64,000 bases of DNA from Bacteroidales bacterium (GCA_021740645.1 JAIOZL010000003.1:50179-114178), one strand, 5' to 3'; positions 48,592 to 57,833 are shown, counted from the first letter of the stretch. Notes: a model not told the origin generated them from the letters alone. Translations and numbers: made by a program.

Positions 48592-49509
48592 ATGAAAGGA
48601 TTTCTATTTGCTTCAATTTTAAGCATAATTACCCTAAGCTCTTTCTCACAGGATTATCATCCCCTACCTGAATCGGATACTTATTGGATACATAAAAGTC
48701 ATGATATCCCAATGATATGTGGTTGTGGGGGAACATGTTCCGTTGAACAGTATATAATCGCAGGTGATACACTAATCAATGAACTGGTTTATCATAAAAT
48801 AGTACATTCAGGGTATTGGTTAAGTAACAATTGCGATGAAAATTTTTTCTATAATGGGTATCAGGGTGCATTCAGAAATGATATAGAAAACAAAATAGTT
48901 TGGTTTGTACCAGAGGGCGAGTCCAGTGAATCGCTCCTATATGAATTTGACCTTCAGGTTGGGGATACTTTATCAGAAGGAATTCTGGATCCTAATGATT
49001 ATTGGGATTTTTGGGTGGAGGATATTGATTCCGTTTTGGTGGGAGACAGTTACAGAAAAAGATTTCATATACGGTCGTGGCTTAACATGAGCGAAATGGC
49101 ACTTCAGATTGTTGAAGGAGTTGGTGGACAAAATCTAATTAAACCTTTTGAAAGTTGGTACTATTTTGAGGGAGGTTACACTTTGAGTTGTATTAATATC
49201 AACGACAGTATATTTTACCCCGAATGGGGGGATTGTGAAATGATCGTTTCGCAGAAGGAAAATAAACAAGCAGGTCCACATTTGATTTTCCCCAATCCAA
49301 CAAACGGATTATTATGGTTTCAAAATTCTGAAGAAACAAAACAATTGATTACAATAGAAATTTTCAATCAATTGGGAGTTAATGTAAAAAGCATCGAATC
49401 AAAAGAAGAAATTATTTTGATAGATTTAAGTAGTAAACCCAAAGGCTTATATTTTATTAAGATCTCCACTGGATTTAAAACAGTTACGCATAAAATCATC
49501 CATCATTAG
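48592..49509 (+). CDS. T9SS type A sorting domain protein of unknown function
   Basis: Signal peptide, GDTLIN..YHKI, LLYEFDLQVGDT, EGVG, IFPNP..KGLYFIKI..KII. Confidence 0.85.
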   Translation: MKGFLFASILSIITLSSFSQDYHPLPESDTYWIHKSHDIPMICGCGGTCSVEQYIIAGDTLINELVYHKIVHSGYWLSNNCDENFFYNGYQGAFRNDIENKIVWFVPEGESSESLLYEFDLQVGDTLSEGILDPNDYWDFWVEDIDSVLVGDSYRKRFHIRSWLNMSEMALQIVEGVGGQNLIKPFESWYYFEGGYTLSCININDSIFYPEWGDCEMIVSQKENKQAGPHLIFPNPTNGLLWFQNSEETKQLITIEIFNQLGVNVKSIESKEEIILIDLSSKPKGLYFIKISTGFKTVTHKIIHH

Positions 49510-49868: not shown

Positions 49869-50708
49869 TTAGTTTTTTCTTTTCTTTTGAATTGCTCGTT
49901 CAATCATTGCTATCAAATCTTCATTATGAGTCTTAGATTGAAAATCATTTCCATCAACATTGTAATTGGCATAAGTCTGTCCAGAAATATCAGAAGGAGG
50001 AGCTGGTCTGTCCTTTTGTTTAATTAGGAAGTATTCTTTTACCCCAAGTTAAAGCTACACCCATTTCTATCATTACGTTTGGATTTAAGTCAGATGTTTC
50101 AAAAACCGCAATATCAGATGAAATTATATCACGAGCTATTTGATTGAATAAATGTTCACCATACCCAGCTGCCAGTGGTTTGTAATTTAATTTGATATTA
50201 ATATTTTTCTCTTTCTTAAGTTTATCAAGTGACTTCTCAAAATCATCCTTTAAGTTTAAAACTAAGTTTTCAGTGCTATAATAATCTGATTCGAATTGAT
50301 AACCAATAACTACTTTTATTGTATCAATCTTACTATTTTCCTTTTGAACATATTCCCAGTCAATGTCTGTGAAACCAAATGGTGATCCAGCGGCTAATGG
50401 TTGTTTTGCAATCAAATTACTCTCACTTCCTTCTTTTTCCCTTTTTATTTCCTTTTGTAATTCGTGATATATATAATTCCCTTTACTGTTAAGATAGACA
50501 TGCCCGAAATTGTATGGTGCAGTTCCAAGGTAGTTGAGCCTTTCTAATAAATCTCGTTCATCCAAGTAATCCATTGCATTATTTATCTCATTAGGAGATA
50601 AACTTGTAAATTCCTCAATATCTTTCCCATCAAACTGTAAGTTTTCATAAGGATTGTTTTCGAATGTTTGATCAAATTTTTTGTTGCATTATCTTCTATT
50701 GGATTCAT
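49869..50708 (-). pseudogene. wHTH plus TIR/nucleoside-deoxyribosyltransferase-like protein with two frameshifts
   Basis: ORF 50020-50574 continues after a +1 shift at about 50025 (IKQKDRPAPPSDISGQTY..KKRKN*, stop 49869). It extends upstream via a -1 shift near the A6 run (50677-50682) to ATG 50708. Confidence 0.7.
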
Positions 50709-50850: not shown

Positions 50851-51123
50851 CTATATTACTATTTTTTTACTTATCATTTCGGGGCCAATACTTAAAGAAA
50901 TAAAATAAACCCCATTTGAAAATGAATGATTTATCTTATTCTCTCCCATATTCAATTCCTGCATGGCCTCCTTTTGACCTGACTCAGTATGAATAATACA
51001 AAATCCGGTACCACAGGAATTTTCTTTTAAGGTGATATATATCAGTCCACTTAGTACAAATATTTTTAGTTTATCTGTATCCATAAACACTTCAATCTTT
51101 ACTTTATTTTCTGCATCAATCAT
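50851..51123 (-). CDS. Stand-alone T9SS CTD-like small protein without signal peptide
   Basis: LKIF..IYITL..SGQ..SNGVYFISL..SKKIVI; start uncertain (ATG 51123 or the later MDTDK Met). Confidence 0.55.
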   Translation of the reverse strand: MIDAENKVKIEVFMDTDKLKIFVLSGLIYITLKENSCGTGFCIIHTESGQKEAMQELNMGENKINHSFSNGVYFISLSIGPEMISKKIVI

Positions 51124-51281
51124 AAATCTCTGCGTGCATAAGTTAAAGTCGGCAAAAATCCATCTCTTTAATAATGCTATGATTGGAAACAATAATCAGG
51201 AAATACATTTATACTCTAAATCAAAATATTTGATATAGCGCATCATGTATCTCCCATTTCAACCAATCCATTAATAGTATC

Positions 51282-51308
51282 ATCCATCAGACGTAAAAAA
51301 AGGAACCC
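51282..51308 (-). promoter_or_regulatory. Putative ECF promoter, copy 1 (toward the stand-alone CTD gene)
   Basis: GGGTTCCTTTTTTTACGTCTGATGGAT. Confidence 0.65.
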
Positions 51309-51535
51309 TGTTTTTAAATATTTTTTTACTTTTATTAACTCTGAAAACCCAAAGTCCTGATTTAATGGACGAAACAAGAAGAAATAATTTATCTGAAAAG
51401 CATAAAGAATTAAAAAGGTTCTCAATTTTATTCCAGGATATGCAGGATTTCCATATTCCATAAAAGCCAGGAATGGATATGTATTAGAAAATCCAATAAA
51501 CTTAAAGGTATTTTTCATTCTTCTTTCGGTTTAAT

Positions 51536-51562
51536 GGGTTCCTTTTCCTTTTCTTAATGGAT
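51536..51562 (+). promoter_or_regulatory. Putative ECF promoter, copy 2 (toward the dockerin/cohesin-like gene)
   Basis: GGGTTCCTTTTCCTTTTCTTAATGGAT, 27 nt before ATG 51590. Confidence 0.72.
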
Positions 51563-51589
51563 ATTATTATAAATTAAAAATCTACCGAT

Positions 51590-52813
51590 ATGAAAAATTT
51601 AAGAAATTTATGGCAATTAATTTTATCCGCCACCCTTGTGTTCACATTTAACAGCTCTTTTGCACAGAATTCCATGAACGGCATAGTTATTTATCTTAAT
51701 GCCGAACAAACCCCCCTAGCCAATGTTGATGTCCTGCTTTTGGATATGGAAGGTGAACTTTTACAAACAACATCTTCGAATGAAACAGGTAATTTTTCTT
51801 TTACCGGATTAGAAGCAGGAACGTATAAAGTAACGGCACAATCGGATCAGGAGCCCCTGCCCTTTATCGATCTTCTGGACGTTTCATTGCTTATTGATTA
51901 TTTAAACAATCAGGTGAACTTTACTTCCGTACAAGAAATGCTTGCTAATGTGAACGGGATTTCTGAAGTAGATGAAGCTGATTTAAACTTCCTTTTGGAA
52001 AACTGGTATTTGAATGGGGAGAATTTCCCGGTGGGCAACTGGATTTTTGAAGAGAAGACAGTTTTTGTGGGAGGAAAAGATGGACAAACAACAATAACAG
52101 GAGGATGCGTAGGTGATGTTTCAAGTGATTATGAGCCAGATAAAAGTTCATCAAATCCAATAGCAGATTTTAATGTTGTTGATATCTATCCGAATAGCAC
52201 TATTGAATTAGCAGTTATTACAGATTACGCTCAAATAGTAAAAAACTTTTTTATTGAAATTGATTTTGATCCTTTCTTGTTGAATGAGCTTATCCTCGAA
52301 TCACCCTTACCTGGCCTTAAATATACCATCGAAAATAACCTGATAAGAATAATCTGGGCTGACATAAATGGGAAAGGGCTTGCTTTATGTGATTTAGATA
52401 ATTTAATCACCTTTAAGCTAAGTTCTGGTAATATTACGAACATTAACCCGGATAATTTCGGCTTAACTGAAAATTGCTCCTTTGTTAACGGTGAAAATCA
52501 ATTTGCAAACGACATCGCACTCAAATTTGCAGAGCCGGTGGTCACTTCGAAGCCAAATCATGGGTTTGATATTTATCCGATTCCTTTGTCAGCCAATCCC
52601 ACATTTCAATATGAACTACCCTATGAGGGTAATGTTAACATTGAATTTATAAATACTTACGGACAGACTGCAAACAGAATTTTCCCCGGTCAATCAATAA
52701 AAGGGTATAATCAATTCTCAAGTCATGATCTTGATTTGGCTTCAGGTTATTATATTGCCATGTTGAGACTAAATGGACAGCTTATTGGCAGCAAAAAAGT
52801 AATCGTCCGCTAA
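51590..52813 (+). CDS. T9SS-secreted protein with Cna-B-like, dockerin-like and cohesin-like domains
   Basis: Signal peptide; LANVDVLL..GNFSFTGLEAGTYKV; IDLLDVSLL/ANVNGISEVDEADL; FFIEIDFDP..IRIIWA..LITFKL; IYPIP..ASGYYIAML..KKVIVR. Confidence 0.75.
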   Translation: MKNLRNLWQLILSATLVFTFNSSFAQNSMNGIVIYLNAEQTPLANVDVLLLDMEGELLQTTSSNETGNFSFTGLEAGTYKVTAQSDQEPLPFIDLLDVSLLIDYLNNQVNFTSVQEMLANVNGISEVDEADLNFLLENWYLNGENFPVGNWIFEEKTVFVGGKDGQTTITGGCVGDVSSDYEPDKSSSNPIADFNVVDIYPNSTIELAVITDYAQIVKNFFIEIDFDPFLLNELILESPLPGLKYTIENNLIRIIWADINGKGLALCDLDNLITFKLSSGNITNINPDNFGLTENCSFVNGENQFANDIALKFAEPVVTSKPNHGFDIYPIPLSANPTFQYELPYEGNVNIEFINTYGQTANRIFPGQSIKGYNQFSSHDLDLASGYYIAMLRLNGQLIGSKKVIVR

Positions 52814-52883
52814 TACCATTCTTACATATGGTATTTAAACCCTAAGTGAAAATCTACCAATTAATCTAAAATCAAAGGGGATT

Positions 52884-52939
52884 TCAGGGGAATAAGGAAT
52901 ACAGGAAATTTAATTATCTTGTACCACCTTTTCCCCTGA
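52884..52939 (+). terminator. Long stem-loop downstream of the secreted-protein gene
   Basis: TCAGGGGAA..AAGG..TACAGGA / TCTTGTA..CCTT..TTCCCCTGA; second hairpin AATACCAT/ATGGTATT at 52812-52835. Confidence 0.5.
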
Positions 52940-53005
52940 TCTGTTTTTAGATATTCAAAAATTCGGAAAGGGAATGAATAATTTTGTACCCTGGTAAATT
53001 GAAAT

Positions 53006-56000
53006 TTGAAAATTCATAAAGCTCATATTATTTATCTTTTTACTTTAATCCTGTGCTTCATCAATATTCAGGGATTTATTGCTGTAGCCCAATTTCAAAA
53101 ACTTTTATCATCCAATGCCGCAATTATCACCTTAGAATATGCCGACTCATCTATTATAGATAATGAAGCATACTATAATTCAAAAATTTCGATAATCAAC
53201 TCCTATATAAAACTGGGGGAATTTAGTAAAGCCAGGTCAGAATTAGATCCCATAATTTCTGAAGCAAATAATATAAAGAATTCAAATGGCAAAGTTTGGC
53301 TAATCTTCACTTACCTGGAAGGTGAAATTGATTACAATATGGGTAAATATCTGAATGCAAAAACCAGCTGGGAACAATGTCTTGAAAACATTAAAACCCC
53401 CAACCAGATTTACGACAGTATTATGGTCTTAAGCCTGAAAGGCCTGGGCAATATAGAACTTAAAGCGGGCAATTCAACAGCCGCACTCGAAAATTACTCC
53501 AGGGCGAAAGCAGTGGAATTAAAACGGAATAAAGGCACGGGACCATTATTAGGCTCCTTATATTTAAACATGGCCCTTGCGTTTGAACAGTTAACCGTTT
53601 TTGATTCGGCTGACGTCTATTTTTTAAAATCCATTCAGATCAAAAAAAAATACGCTGAGGACCAAAACTTACTGGCATCATCTTATGCCAATTACAGTAA
53701 TTATTTAATTCAATTTGGTAAAATTAAAAAGGCCCTTTTTTACCTCAACCTTGCCGACAGTTTGTACCGCTCAAAACATGGGGAAAATTTTTACAGGTTG
53801 GCCTATATCTATTTAAACTATGCCAAGGTACATATGCTAAATAACGAATACCGGCAGGCATTGTATTACTATATTAAATCGGAGAATATTTACATGGAAT
53901 ATTTGCCGGAAAACGATAAAAAATTTGAAAGTATAAAATCAGATATTGCATTGTTATATAAATATTTATCGCGATACGAAAAATCTATCGAAATATATAA
54001 TTCACCCACGCTTGCAAAGTCAGACAATCCAATCACACAAGTTGTTTGCCTCAGAAATATAGGGGAATGCCATTTGTTACTTGGAAACACGAAAGAGGCA
54101 GGATACTTTGCCAGGGAAGCCTTAAAAAAATCAATTCTTCTTTTTGGCATAAACCATATTCAGACTGCTACTTGTTATTTAAGTTATTCAAATTATAACT
54201 CAATGATCGGGGATAAAGTAAATGCTGAAAATTGCCTAAATACTGCACTTGGGTTTTTTACAAACTACTTTGGGAAAAACAACCGTGAAGTTACCAATGT
54301 TTACAATTTTTCCAGCAAGAATTATCTGGAATTAAAAACGTATTACAAAGCTGCAACAGCCGCACAAAAGGCAATAATATCAATAACTCCCGGCTTTACA
54401 GATACTTCAATATTTGTAAACCCGGATTTTGGTCTCTTACAGAATGATTACCACGCTATTGCTGCCTTAACTTTAAAAACCAGGGCCCTCGTTGAACTGA
54501 TGCTGGCTCACCCCACCAAACAGGTTTATGCAGTTAAAGCGCTTGAAACAGCATTACTGGGTATTCGCTTGTTCGAAACGTTTAGAACAACACTTGATGA
54601 GGAGAATAGTAAAATGTATACTACTGAAAAGGTCAATACACTTTTTCCGCTTGCTACCTATGCTGCCTGGCAAATTTTCACAAACACAAATAACCCTGAA
54701 TATCTTGACATTGCCTTTCAGCAAGCTGGCAAAAATAAAGCTACAATACTGGCCTCAGGAATGAAGACTGTAAAGGGCCTCGATAAATATATTCCTGAAC
54801 CATTGGCCCGGGAAGAAAAAAACATTAAGCAAGAGTTAAGGGCATTAAACAGCCTTATTCATGAAGAAAATAATAAGGACCAACAAGACAGTGCCAGGAT
54901 AGGTTGGCTCCAAAACAAATTGTTTAACAAATACACTGAGCTTGATAGTTTGATGAAATATATTTCTAAAAATTATCAGAAATATTTTGATTTAACCAAT
55001 ACCTATGATGTCGCATCATTAAAGGATATTGAAAATAGCTTAACTAAAGATGAGGCACTATTGGAATATGTCATGTCCGAAGATTTTCTTTTTCTTTTTG
55101 TTGTTAAAAACAATGAAGTAAAAGTCAGGAAAATTGATTTGGACACTACTTTTAGAAACACTATTAAAACCTACTTATCCTTATTGCATACCCCACCTTC
55201 ATTTGATGTAAGTCCGAAAGAATTAATTCATGAGTATTCATTGATTTCTTATGAAATATATCAAAAGCTTATTGGCCCCGTTGAAAGCCTGATCAAAAAC
55301 AAAGAATTGATTATTATCCCAGACGATGTGCTTGGTTATCTGCCTTTCGAATCATTGATTACGTCCCCTTATAACGAAAGCTTTAAAAATTTCAGAGAAC
55401 TTCCGTATATGGTAAAAGAATACCCCATTTCTTATCATTATTCTTCAAGCCTTTTTCTTAATAGCTTCATAACTAAACTCAACCATTTGATAAATAAAGC
55501 CCTGGTGATGGCACCTTCATATAGGATTAATGGCAGAAATAACGATTCAACCAAATTTGGCCATCTTCCTATTTTAAAATTCACAAAAAACGAAGCCGAA
55601 GTAATTCATCAGCTAGTCGGGGGGAAAATTTATGTTGATTCATCAGCTACAGAAAGAAATTTCAAAAACAATGCTTCAAACTTTTCAATATTGCACCTGG
55701 CTATGCATACTATCCTGGATGATGAAGACCCCATGTCGTCGAAGCTGATTTTTTCACAAAACGATGATCCGAACGAGGACGGTTTATTAAATACTTATGA
55801 GATTTATGACTTAGCATTAGATGCCCGCATGGTTGTGTTAAGCGCCTGTGAAACCGGGTCAGGGACCCTGAGAAAAGGTGAGGGTATTATGAATATGGCA
55901 AGGGGCTTTCTGTTTGCCGGTGTACCCTCATTGCTGATAACCCACTGGAAGGTAAATGATGCCTCTTCATCCCAAATAATGAAAGGATATTATTCATCCC

Positions 56001-56215
56001 TTCAAAAAGGAAAAAGCAAAGCATTACAAGAATCGAAACTAGTATTTATTTCAGGATCTGATCTGGTATTTGCCCATCCATATTATTGGAGTGCTTATGT
56101 AATTATTGGGGATGTAAGCCCTATTAAAGGCAGCAAAATGAAAATGATTATATCCCTTATTGGCCTTGTTTTAATCGGTATAATCACCCTATATTTTCTT
56201 CGGAAAAAATCCTAA
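53006..56215 (+). CDS. Membrane-anchored TPR-CHAT (caspase-like) protease
   Basis: N-terminal hydrophobic segment, many TPRs, LLEY, LIIIPDDVLGYLPFESL, ILHLAMH, LSACETG, GEG, HPYYWSAY, C-terminal TM; TAATTTTG at 52979-52986. Confidence 0.92.
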   Translation: MKIHKAHIIYLFTLILCFINIQGFIAVAQFQKLLSSNAAIITLEYADSSIIDNEAYYNSKISIINSYIKLGEFSKARSELDPIISEANNIKNSNGKVWLIFTYLEGEIDYNMGKYLNAKTSWEQCLENIKTPNQIYDSIMVLSLKGLGNIELKAGNSTAALENYSRAKAVELKRNKGTGPLLGSLYLNMALAFEQLTVFDSADVYFLKSIQIKKKYAEDQNLLASSYANYSNYLIQFGKIKKALFYLNLADSLYRSKHGENFYRLAYIYLNYAKVHMLNNEYRQALYYYIKSENIYMEYLPENDKKFESIKSDIALLYKYLSRYEKSIEIYNSPTLAKSDNPITQVVCLRNIGECHLLLGNTKEAGYFAREALKKSILLFGINHIQTATCYLSYSNYNSMIGDKVNAENCLNTALGFFTNYFGKNNREVTNVYNFSSKNYLELKTYYKAATAAQKAIISITPGFTDTSIFVNPDFGLLQNDYHAIAALTLKTRALVELMLAHPTKQVYAVKALETALLGIRLFETFRTTLDEENSKMYTTEKVNTLFPLATYAAWQIFTNTNNPEYLDIAFQQAGKNKATILASGMKTVKGLDKYIPEPLAREEKNIKQELRALNSLIHEENNKDQQDSARIGWLQNKLFNKYTELDSLMKYISKNYQKYFDLTNTYDVASLKDIENSLTKDEALLEYVMSEDFLFLFVVKNNEVKVRKIDLDTTFRNTIKTYLSLLHTPPSFDVSPKELIHEYSLISYEIYQKLIGPVESLIKNKELIIIPDDVLGYLPFESLITSPYNESFKNFRELPYMVKEYPISYHYSSSLFLNSFITKLNHLINKALVMAPSYRINGRNNDSTKFGHLPILKFTKNEAEVIHQLVGGKIYVDSSATERNFKNNASNFSILHLAMHTILDDEDPMSSKLIFSQNDDPNEDGLLNTYEIYDLALDARMVVLSACETGSGTLRKGEGIMNMARGFLFAGVPSLLITHWKVNDASSSQIMKGYYSSLQKGKSKALQESKLVFISGSDLVFAHPYYWSAYVIIGDVSPIKGSKMKMIISLIGLVLIGIITLYFLRKKS

Positions 56216-56955
56216 TCCAGCTTTTTTAAAATCTCAGAGGACTGCAATGCAAACGGACTTTTGGAAGCTTTAATGCGGCCGAAAATCTCTTTTGCTTCAG
56301 TAACCTTATTTTGTTGCAAATAAGTCAGGGCCAGATACCATTCAGCCTGCTCAATGAATAAATTCGTTTGGTCCATGTAAACATAGTTAAAACTTTGTTC
56401 TGCCATTCTGTAATCATGGAGTTCATAATAACAAATCCCTGTATAGAAATTGGAAACCACTTTATTCTCAAATAATAAAAAGAGTTCAAGGGATTTGGCA
56501 TATTCACCATTATTATATAGGGAAAAAGCCTCATTATTTCCCGATAAGTCCTGGTCTTCAATTGATCTGTAATCGTGAATAGAGTAGGCTGGCTTATAGT
56601 ATTTCTGTGCAATCTGCTCTGGTGCCACTATCTGACCATTAAGAAAAAAGTACAATAGACCTGATGCAATGAGCAGTGCCAGGCTGGCTGCAGCAGCATA
56701 AATATAATATTTCCCTCTTTTTTGATTGTATGGAATTTTGAAAGGGAAGGGATTTTTGGCTGTCCTTCGCTTATTTAAAACATTTCTGATGGTAACAAAA
56801 CCAGCATCGTTGATTGTATTTCTAAGTTCTTCCTGAAAATGAAGTTCCTTTTTAAGGGATTCATTATTCTCAACCTCATTAAGAAAAATTTCATTTTCTT
56901 GTGGCGACATCATTCCACATAGGAAGTTGTCCACACTTTCGGTATATCTTTCCAT
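56212..56955 (-). CDS. Putative anti-sigma factor (N-terminal anti-sigma domain, TM, TPR)
   Basis: VDNFLCGMMSPQENEIF..LKKEL, TM YIYAAAASLALLIASGLLYFFL, YYKPAY..YRS, TPRs (FYTGICY, AEWYLALTYL); ATG 1 nt after the sigma stop. Confidence 0.8.
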   Translation of the reverse strand: MERYTESVDNFLCGMMSPQENEIFLNEVENNESLKKELHFQEELRNTINDAGFVTIRNVLNKRRTAKNPFPFKIPYNQKRGKYYIYAAAASLALLIASGLLYFFLNGQIVAPEQIAQKYYKPAYSIHDYRSIEDQDLSGNNEAFSLYNNGEYAKSLELFLLFENKVVSNFYTGICYYELHDYRMAEQSFNYVYMDQTNLFIEQAEWYLALTYLQQNKVTEAKEIFGRIKASKSPFALQSSEILKKLD

Positions 56956-56956
56956 A

Positions 56957-57541
56957 TTAGTTGTCTTTTGAAAGTTCATTAAATCTTGGGTCACTTTTGA
57001 TACTTTTCATTAATTTTTCCTTGCATTTATACTTTACTTTCTTTGTATAGCTAACACTTTCAATATTTAGAATTTCAGCAATTTCTTTCAAACTTTTCCC
57101 ACCCTCAGAGAGCCTGATCAGCTCTTTACACCTGTCGCCCAACATATCAATATGATCCAGATAAAGTTTTTTTCTTTCCATGGTGTCCATTGATTTTTCA
57201 AAGGATTCAAAATTGATTTCTTTCGCTGATATTTCATTTATAATTCGTTTATAGTTTTTTCGTCGACTAAGCTTTTTGGCCCATATATTTTTACATACTA
57301 CAAAAAAATAAGCTTTAAATCCATCATGTATCTTTACATTTTCATGAACAATTTTTTGATACACAAGTAATAATGCGTCCTGAAAAACATCTTCTGCATC
57401 ATTTGAACTTCCCGAATTATATTTGACATAGCGGTTAATATTTTCAAAATAGGTATCATAAAGGAAATTTATAACCTTTTCGTCTCCCCTTGTAAGTCCC
57501 TCTACAATTTCAATATTTCCTAATTTAATACCCCTTTTCAT
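56957..57541 (-). CDS. ECF-type RNA polymerase sigma factor
   Basis: GDEKVINFLY, DAEDVFQDA, KNIW, region 4 LGDRCKELI..SLKEIAEIL..KYKCKEKL. Confidence 0.92.
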   Translation of the reverse strand: MKRGIKLGNIEIVEGLTRGDEKVINFLYDTYFENINRYVKYNSGSSNDAEDVFQDALLLVYQKIVHENVKIHDGFKAYFFVVCKNIWAKKLSRRKNYKRIINEISAKEINFESFEKSMDTMERKKLYLDHIDMLGDRCKELIRLSEGGKSLKEIAEILNIESVSYTKKVKYKCKEKLMKSIKSDPRFNELSKDN

Positions 57542-57545
57542 AAAA

Positions 57546-57572
57546 ATCCATTGTAAAATGAAAAAGTAACCC
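57546..57572 (-). promoter_or_regulatory. Putative ECF promoter, copy 3 (autoregulatory)
   Basis: GGGTTACTTTTTCATTTTACAATGGAT, 4 nt before the sigma ATG. Confidence 0.72.
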
Positions 57573-57833
57573 CTTTATGCAGATTTTTTATGTAAAAATA
57601 AAATATCAACCTGTGTATGCGGCTAATAGATTGCATACTTAGAAAGTTAACCCCTAAAATAATTATTACAAAATTTGAGTTGCGTTTTTGTACTTAGCGA
57701 AAGTACTAAAAGAGGAGATAACTAAACAAAATAAATAATCGTTCTATCAAATTCGTTATTTATCATACAGGTGAATGATAAAGATTCATTATTAATAACC
57801 TAACTTTTATTCTAAAATATTGTTACCTATTCT

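Follow-up and report, generated by a model that had tools for sequence, protein, structure and literature searches.

Conserved bipartite motifs in a Bacteroidales genome as probable promoters of an autoregulated ECF sigma factor and its small secreted-protein regulon

Operons that encode a sigma factor of extracytoplasmic function (ECF) together with its anti-sigma factor, autoregulated through rigidly spaced -35 and -10 elements, are the general ECF paradigm (PMC7826278, PMC8103513). In Myxococcus xanthus, the ECF sigma factor DdvS is held by DdvA, a transmembrane (TM) anti-sigma factor with periplasmic tetratricopeptide repeats (TPRs) and a CHAT domain; DdvA self-cleavage is proposed, with CHAT acting as a site-1 protease ahead of RseP (PMC11506125). 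The ECF54 group of Actinobacteria has carboxypeptidase, subtilase, and CHAT proteins nearby and is presented without an anti-sigma factor (PMC8999054). Our literature search turned up no publication about either an ECF/anti-sigma/CHAT module or the motif considered below in Bacteroidota, although supplements of the ECF re-classification may list the group and a predicted motif; "CHAT" has no occurrence in the main text of that re-classification (PMC7826278). Here we analyze a 64,000-nt stretch of a Bacteroidales bacterium genome (GCA_021740645.1, JAIOZL010000003.1:50179-114178; the window), in which genes for an ECF-type sigma factor, an anti-sigma-like protein, and a TPR-CHAT protein are adjacent and a bipartite motif, GGGTT[CA]CTTTT-N12-GGAT, precedes several genes. 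Comparison across genomes indicates that this motif is most likely a promoter read by the ECF sigma factor encoded at 56957-57541, which would be autoregulated and would control a small secreted-protein regulon.

The motif sites in the window and the genes behind them are the following.

57546..57572, minus strand: putative autoregulatory promoter of the sigma gene, GGGTTACTTTTT-N-AATGGAT; the same block lies at the same distance in the related genome G020.
57581..57590, minus strand: A-rich block TAAAAAAT, about 10 nt upstream of the sigma-gene -35 element; kept in G020, where the flanks have diverged.
56957..57541, minus strand: ECF-type sigma factor, 194 aa (TIGR02937, sigma70-ECF).
51536..51562, plus strand: putative sigma-dependent promoter of the 407-aa gene; the orthologous G020 site lies 32 nt before the 406-aa ortholog.
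51590..52813, plus strand: secreted 407-aa protein with a signal peptide, a CarboxypepD_reg/prealbumin-like domain, and a C-terminal sorting domain of the type IX secretion system (T9SS).
51282..51308, minus strand: putative sigma-dependent promoter toward the small gene of the next line, divergent from the 407-aa-gene site; an orthologous divergent site is present in G020.
50851..51123, minus strand: small protein of about 90 aa, similar to a T9SS C-terminal domain (CTD-like), without a signal peptide; its open reading frame (ORF) is open from TTG 51192.

The motif was originally predicted from the window alone, in the form GGGTT[AC]CTTTT-N10-ATGGAT, at three places whose coordinates were all borne out. 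A scan allowing two mismatches or fewer returned exactly these three matches, against a mean of 0.03 in 100 dinucleotide-preserving shuffles of the window, none of which reached three; this comparison is post hoc, the pattern having been defined from sites already seen. The sites of the sigma gene and the 407-aa gene are identical at 21 of 27 positions, as had been reported, and each of the three is indeed directed at a downstream gene. The measured gaps are 4 nt to the sigma ATG (57541), 27 nt to the ATG of the 407-aa gene (51590), and 89 or 158 nt to the small CTD-like gene, for starts at TTG 51192 and ATG 51123, respectively; ATG 51123 is the more likely start, because the 91-aa homolog in G020 fits it. 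The original prediction also held that TAnnTTTG, which is the consensus of the Bacteroidota housekeeping -7 box, is missing ahead of these three genes and present ahead of the CHAT gene, and both parts of this statement proved correct for the relevant strands. No terminator-like hairpin was found at the three motif sites and no Rfam match at E<=1 between positions 50000 and 58500 of the window, and a promoter scan with the E. coli sigma-70 consensus remained at background (29 matches versus 32.9 expected).

Sigma homologs at E<=1e-10 were detected in 34 of 60 relatives, and all but the one in G020 are at most 44% identical to the window sigma factor. The G020 sigma factor is 67% identical and is the only close ortholog among the genomes searched; the best identity elsewhere was 37% among 20 metagenome relatives and 43% in a scan of genome contigs. 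The gene order in G020 is syntenic, with genes for a cytidylyltransferase, the 91-aa CTD-like protein, the 406-aa protein, the CHAT protein, the anti-sigma factor, and the sigma factor, and the proteins of G020 and the window share 50-67% identity (52% for CHAT and 51% for the 407-aa/406-aa pair). The presence of the motif upstream of an orthologous sigma gene, proposed from the outset as a check, was observed in this genome. The motif occupies three orthologous places there, its distance to the gene downstream being 4 nt for the sigma gene (to the ATG), 32 nt for the 406-aa gene, and 101 nt for the 91-aa gene. In pairwise alignments of the two genomes, the motif blocks and the A-rich block upstream of the sigma -35 element stand out from diverged intergenic DNA. 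The 11 sites of the two genomes show an A-rich consensus at -16 to -11, and the block upstream of the sigma -35 element is possibly UP-element-like.

Over these 11 sites, positions G2, G3, T4, T5, C7, T8-T11, G24, G25, A26, and T27 are invariant. Of the -10 element originally given as ATGGAT, the GGAT part is thus retained, while the T before it is not, being replaced by A or G at the three non-sigma sites of G020. For the -35 element, originally GGTT[AC]C, the block is GGGTT[CA]CTTTT. Position 6 is A at the sigma gene's own site in both genomes and C at all the other sites (9/9). The genomes of the genus were grouped by sigma identity, not by motif, and GGGTTCCTTTT-N12-GGAT was counted: it has five copies in the analyzed assembly, three in G020, one in G024 (inside a 702-aa ORF), and none in the other 26 genus genomes, and the reversed control gave no match in any genus genome.

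The assembly that contains the window (G000; 5.06 Mb, 83 contigs, 37.9% G+C, with the window on contig C25) has four further equally spaced sites, on contigs C20, C33, C34, and C43, giving seven genome-wide. These score 31-42 bits with a weight matrix made from the seven, the next best genome position reaching 17 bits; the absolute values are inflated, as the matrix scores its own training sites, and the gap is wide. The genome scan thus confirms that the motif is rare. Six of the seven sites fall within the 10.7% of the genome outside ORFs of at least 120 aa, and all seven are directed at a gene start 4-396 nt downstream. Only about 27 nt and a short AT-rich tail are shared between them, the flanks being unrelated. 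Since the raw pattern at two mismatches or fewer is found 10 times in the genome against 5 in a reversed control, the signal resides in the exact and near-exact sites. The original prediction of a small regulon is supported by several sites located ahead of genes and has to be amended in size, with at least seven sites instead of three.

The same arrangement is seen in more distant homologs. Sigma-homolog loci were compared for the window, its paralog, and 29 relatives. Of these 31 loci, 29 have the family pattern GGTW[AC]C[CT]TT-N13-G[AG]AT no more than 120 nt upstream of the residue at which the alignment begins, and the other two hold near-matches; the remaining 207,694 nt of these loci contain no match on either strand. 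This pattern was defined post hoc and several loci are near-duplicates, so that the counts overstate independence. The homologs that are 35-44% identical, found in most genus genomes, carry GGGT(A/T)ACCTTTT-N10-(G/A)GAAT in the same register. Nearly all paralog-type sigma genes (loci L011-L034) start at a conserved GTG (VQE...) about 13 nt past the -10 core, often with an in-frame stop codon just upstream; thus these genes would have very short leaders and a non-ATG start.

A second sigma/anti-sigma/TPR-CHAT module was found in the same assembly on contig C44 (20791-27295; locus L047, 5792-12296), with 42%, 35%, and 32% identity to the window for the sigma, anti-sigma, and CHAT proteins, respectively. 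Its motif variant, GGGTAACCTTTT-N10-(A/G)GAAT, is present before the C44 sigma gene and again just past the C44 CHAT gene, where it precedes a gene for an orphan cytoplasmic histidine kinase (HisKA and HATPase_c, 263 aa), and nowhere else in the genome. As this variant occurs only at its own module, the two modules have distinct motifs, which would be expected if each sigma factor reads its own. Between the C44 CHAT gene and the motif, a small ORF on the minus strand (about L047 10990-11150) appears by eye to encode a signal-peptide-like N-terminus and a Gly-rich tail.

The remaining features of the module in the window are listed below.

56212..56955, minus strand: single-pass anti-sigma-like protein made up of a cytoplasmic domain at the N-terminus, a single TM helix, and a TPR domain in the periplasm.
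53006..56215, plus strand: exported TPR-CHAT (caspase-like) protein, 1069 aa (Pfam CHAT, TPR_12).
52979..52986, plus strand: TAnnTTTG box TAATTTTG, 20 nt before the TTG start of the CHAT gene.

The sigma factor matches TIGR02937 with 58.3 bits (cut-off 42.9) over residues 25-177 of 194 and Pfam Sigma70_r2 with 22.9 bits, just under the cut-off of 24, and its family profile matches B. subtilis SigW in PDB (E 4.5e-8). With an ECF superfamily match, only the sigma2 and sigma4 regions, and a length in the range of about 170-200 aa, it belongs to the ECF (group 4) factors. Two cysteines of the sigma4 region, C138 and C173 (window numbering), are invariant in 15 of 15 aligned family members and might form a structural or redox-sensitive pair.

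The likely start of the anti-sigma gene, ATG 56955, lies 1 nt after the sigma stop codon, its ORF being open from GTG 56994. The protein carries Pfam TPR matches, and no Pfam or NCBIfam model matched its N-terminal part. The family alignment shows a first helix of the type (Y/F)(L/I)DGxL, which is conserved, together with a hydrophobic AAAS segment, and a zinc-binding His/Cys motif is not conserved. A predicted complex of the sigma factor with anti-sigma residues 1-80, which is compatible with an N-terminal helical anti-sigma domain, received a score of 0.84, the best of three controls reaching 0.41. The runs share at least 90% of contacts, the pLDDT (predicted local distance difference test) of the partner is at least 78, and the predicted contacts involve both sigma2 and sigma4. 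For comparison, 58 of 80 solved complexes attain this mark, as do 2 of 110 mismatched pairs, counts that apply only roughly here because our own alignments were used in the prediction. The score shows likeness to known sigma/anti-sigma complexes; because such complexes have already been solved, passing the mark may reflect this likeness and is not proof of binding. Gene adjacency, co-location in the family, and the model-based complex together point to a co-transcribed cognate anti-sigma factor.

The 1069-aa protein contains a CHAT domain (PF12770, E 2.2e-52, residues 750-1036), TPRs located N-terminally to it (TPR_12, E 8.3e-20), a hydrophobic, signal-like segment at the N-terminus, and a TM anchor at the C-terminus, and therefore we read it as an exported caspase-like protein. 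Its His and Cys residues in the contexts "LAMHT" and "LSACETG" presumably form the catalytic dyad of CHAT. No PDB chain matched this protein by sequence at E<=0.01. None of the PADLOC models matched the sigma, anti-sigma, CHAT, or 407-aa proteins, and no link to known defence was found among them. The CHAT gene, originally proposed to be constitutive, has the TAnnTTTG box listed above; since no terminator-like site was detected between the 407-aa gene and the CHAT gene, read-through from the motif-driven 407-aa gene into the CHAT gene is possible.

The trio of sigma, anti-sigma, and TPR-CHAT genes is widespread in Bacteroidota. A phylum-wide scan gave 516 relatives, in Bacteroidales, Prolixibacteraceae, Marinilabiliales, Saprospiraceae, Flavobacteriaceae, Cytophagales, and others, of which 80 loci with flanks of up to 4 kb on each side were kept. 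A CHAT homolog is present in 59 and an anti-sigma homolog in 56 of these 80, and both are present in 44. Many Prolixibacteraceae-type loci have a clear GGGTWACCTTTT-N10-GG(A/T)AT beside the CHAT gene, directed outward. The cores observed in relatives are GTAACC or GTTACC at -35 and GAAT, GGAT, GTAT, or CGTAT at -10, the last variant resembling the classic ECF element CGTA.

Among the predicted targets in the window, the 407-aa protein matches TIGR04183 with 32.4 bits (cut-off 23), which, with its signal peptide, identifies it as T9SS cargo. Its earlier description as dockerin/cohesin-like had to be dropped: no such family was matched at E<=0.01, and the CarboxypepD_reg/prealbumin-like and T9SS domains were found instead. 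The small CTD-like protein has a weak match to TIGR04183 (21.6 bits, below the cut-off of 23). This protein resembles a stand-alone T9SS C-terminal sorting domain and is conserved behind the divergent motif site in both the window and G020, where its counterpart lies at L046 5136-5411 (minus strand). A 91-aa ORF at 51243-51518 (minus strand) extends across the region of the divergent promoters; since it matches no family and the intergenic region of G020, which is much shorter, lacks a counterpart, this ORF probably does not represent a gene. A 184-aa ORF (50020-50574, minus strand) without a Pfam or NCBIfam match separates the small CTD-like gene from a gene for a 305-aa T9SS protein (48592-49509). 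This ORF and the 305-aa-protein gene are absent from the syntenic region of G020 and thus constitute an insertion relative to that genome.

Outside the window, the sites on C20 and C43 precede two paralogous lipoprotein-led clusters with T9SS cargo proteins, the site on C34 precedes a gene for a LuxR-type response regulator followed by two T9SS cargo genes, and the site on C33 precedes three small paralogs without known function. For four of the six non-sigma targets, the same-strand cluster includes a cargo protein that passes the curated cut-off; the 90-aa protein, a fifth target, narrowly misses it. There are at least 150 Por_Secre_tail matches over the cut-off in the genome, so cargo genes near any site are not rare, and for this reason we claim no enrichment of T9SS cargo near the sites. 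The leaders behind the C20, C43, and 90-aa-gene sites yielded no conserved small ORF, and those of C20 and C43 showed no similarity to each other. At C34:19410-19445, a palindrome comprises an A-run, GGGACCC, a 4-nt loop, GGGTTCC, and a T-run, the -35 element being its 3' half; it looks like a bidirectional terminator, and this site is the weakest of the seven. A long (GA)n run at C34:19530-19600 (L050, about 1030-1100), between the motif and the likely start of the LuxR-type regulator (MKEKINL...), reads as (ER)n in the longest ORF and may be prone to slippage.

Because the sites are real, rare, conserved, and found together with the sigma factor, we infer recognition by the sigma factor and the transcription start sites. 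By its conservation, the copy before the sigma gene would be classed as an autoregulatory promoter, and the overall pattern would be the expected signature of an autoregulated ECF sigma factor with a small regulon. Several observations weigh against this interpretation. The C20 and C43 leaders are long (234 and 396 nt), the C43 site is overlapped by a 148-aa ORF, and the C34 site (ATCGGAT) is part of a palindrome resembling a terminator stem with a T-run. The fourth G020 site precedes an unrelated secreted-protein gene, so that conservation of the distal targets is not seen, and the best G020 homolog of the C20 lipoprotein (36%) has no motif within 700 nt upstream. As G000 and G020 may be sister species, the co-occurrence of sigma factor and motif may represent one evolutionary event. 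With a gap of 4 nt before the sigma ATG, the start site would have to lie no more than about 5 nt from GGAT, a -10-to-start distance toward the lower end of the range for ECF promoters. In the phylum-wide loci, the motif is directly upstream of the sigma gene in only 20 of 80 cases by the strict and 26 of 80 by the looser pattern, and the looser pattern has 37 matches elsewhere in these loci versus 20 in a reversed control. In the Saprospiraceae, Aquimarina, and Spirosoma loci, no motif was seen in the 113 nt around the starts of the sigma matches. Finally, mapping of the -10 variants on the sigma tree required 6 changes against 9-10 in 10 shuffles (of 200), a result too weak to count, and kin share labels.

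Three other explanations were weighed. Recognition of the sites by the window sigma factor is argued from comparison, and the motif could be read by another factor (the C44 paralog, a different ECF sigma factor, or a DNA-binding regulator), with the window sigma gene merely a target. The C44 motif is similar in layout and has the same register, and G000 has two sigma matches at E<=1e-10 among 19 candidates scored. We nevertheless regard this explanation as improbable, since the C44 module has its own TAACC and GAAT variant at its own sigma and CHAT genes, and the window-type variant occurs outside genes only in the two genus genomes that possess a window-type sigma factor. Moreover, the placement directly upstream of the sigma gene in 29 of 31 loci is that of classic autoregulation, and a bipartite element with fixed spacing suits a sigma factor and not a dimeric repressor.

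It is considerably less likely that the motif is a non-promoter repeat, that is, a terminator remnant, the end of a small mobile element, or an RNA element of the 5' leader. To be sure, GGGTTCCTTTTT resembles the 3' half of an intrinsic terminator, with a G+C-rich stem half and then a T-run, and the upstream complement at the C34 site yields a hairpin-like palindrome. However, the three window positions have neither a terminator-like structure nor an Rfam match, the shared part ends after about 27 nt and a short AT-rich tail with unrelated flanks on either side, every copy is directed at a gene start, and the placement with respect to the sigma start codon is constant from genome to genome; most of the sigma-gene motif lies upstream of any transcript that contains the ATG. 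Mere chance likeness among AT-rich intergenic regions is least probable of all and is effectively refuted by the ortholog comparison, in which positions are kept although the G020 proteins are only 50-67% identical. The definition of the pattern after the sites had been seen, the genome count of 10 versus 5 at two mismatches, and the one exact match of the relaxed pattern inside a G024 gene could be cited in its favor; the shuffles, the weight-matrix gap, the 29 of 31 loci, and the co-occurrence in the genus all speak against it.

We therefore favor a promoter read by the window sigma factor, with GGGTT[CA]CTTTT as the putative -35 element, GGAT 12 nt further on as the -10 core, the A-rich block on the upstream side, and an AT-rich start region on the downstream side. 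At rest, the sigma factor would be kept at the membrane by the anti-sigma factor's N-terminal domain; the anti-sigma factor would be co-transcribed and span the membrane once, with its TPR domain facing the periplasm. A periplasmic cue would lead to loss of the anti-sigma factor, and the freed sigma factor would transcribe its own operon and about six other promoters. The copy abutting the sigma start codon would provide positive autoregulation of the sigma/anti-sigma operon. The sigma mRNA is probably leaderless or nearly so, because the sole possible start codon is the ATG 4 nt after GGAT in both genomes. The divergent copies would drive the 407-aa T9SS cargo gene, perhaps with the CHAT gene behind it, and the gene for the 90-aa CTD-like protein, and the four distal copies would drive the lipoprotein/T9SS cargo clusters, the LuxR-type response regulator, and the three small genes.

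The membrane-anchored periplasmic TPR-CHAT protease could be the sensor or the site-1 protease that triggers sigma release, a step that we propose tentatively, by analogy with DdvA. A wider and somewhat more speculative extension is a phylum-wide "split DdvA", in which a separate TPR-CHAT protease would sense the cue, cut the anti-sigma TPR domain, and free the sigma factor, with a leaderless promoter, T9SS and surface outputs, and modules insulated from each other by one- or two-base differences at -35 (TTCC versus TAACC) and -10 (GGAT versus GAAT).

For an uncharacterised ECF sigma factor from uncultured Bacteroidales, the motif offers a testable specificity, GGGTT[CA]CTTTT-N12-GGAT, and a predicted seven-promoter regulon linked to T9SS cargo. 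The motif of the relatives, GGGTWACCTTTT-N10-nGnAT, could serve as a handle for predicting the outputs of sigma/anti-sigma/TPR-CHAT modules, which are carried by cultured genera such as Marinifilum, Prolixibacter, Aquimarina, and Spirosoma; Marinifilum flexuosum, Prolixibacter denitrificans, and Ancylomarina longa are among the cultured species that have the family. The two apparently insulated variants and the apparent leaderless autoregulation could also be useful for studies of ECF specificity and for the part lists of synthetic biology.

In its layout, the predicted system resembles those of B. subtilis SigW and E. coli RpoE, with a small sigma factor of sigma2 and sigma4 regions, a co-transcribed single-pass anti-sigma factor, a bipartite promoter of fixed spacing at its own gene, a T-run after the -35 core, and a small regulon; SigW is also the nearest solved sequence to the window sigma family. 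Canonical ECF promoters have the cores "AAC" at -35 and "CGT" (CGTC or CGTA) at -10. Unlike these, the window clade has GTT[CA]C and not AAC at -35, and GGAT (GAAT or GTAT in relatives) and not CGTC or CGTA at -10, a variant core as in other ECF groups. A further difference from SigW and RpoE is the start of the sigma gene 4 nt after the -10 core, which would imply a leaderless mRNA. ECF21, the Dma group of Bacteroides, is a different group from that of this sigma factor.

Two known systems share with the window the link between an ECF sigma factor and a CHAT protease. The type III-E Craspase is said to consist of Cas7-11, the TPR-CHAT protein Csx29, Csx30, and an ECF-type RpoE, and to be cytoplasmic and RNA-guided. 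By this account, a TPR-CHAT protease is tied to an ECF sigma factor via a sigma-binding partner there as well; unlike it, the CHAT protein of the window is an exported one, and the ORFs examined between 42.9 and 64.0 kb included no CRISPR genes. ECF54, as described, is similar in the idea of an ECF sigma factor controlled by a neighbouring CHAT-domain protease; the window module differs by a clear anti-sigma factor and by its Bacteroidota family.

The closest parallel is DdvS/DdvA, which likewise combines an ECF sigma factor, a TM anti-sigma factor, periplasmic TPRs, and a CHAT caspase-like domain. DdvA is one chain, whereas here the TPR anti-sigma factor (56212-56955, minus strand) and the TPR-CHAT protein (53006-56215, plus strand) are encoded by separate genes, as they are in G020 and at the paralog locus, and no single polypeptide of the module unites the anti-sigma domain, TM helix, and TPR-CHAT part. 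Unlike DdvA, the window anti-sigma factor has no CHCC zinc motif. The predicted regulon consists of surface and T9SS proteins and, with no PADLOC match, differs from the CBASS (cyclic oligonucleotide-based antiphage signalling system) and CRISPR defence outputs ascribed to DdvS. DdvS/DdvA comes from Myxococcota and the window module from Bacteroidota. In kind, the predicted system is a standard autoregulated ECF circuit, and its protease partner, separate from the anti-sigma factor, is the more interesting part.

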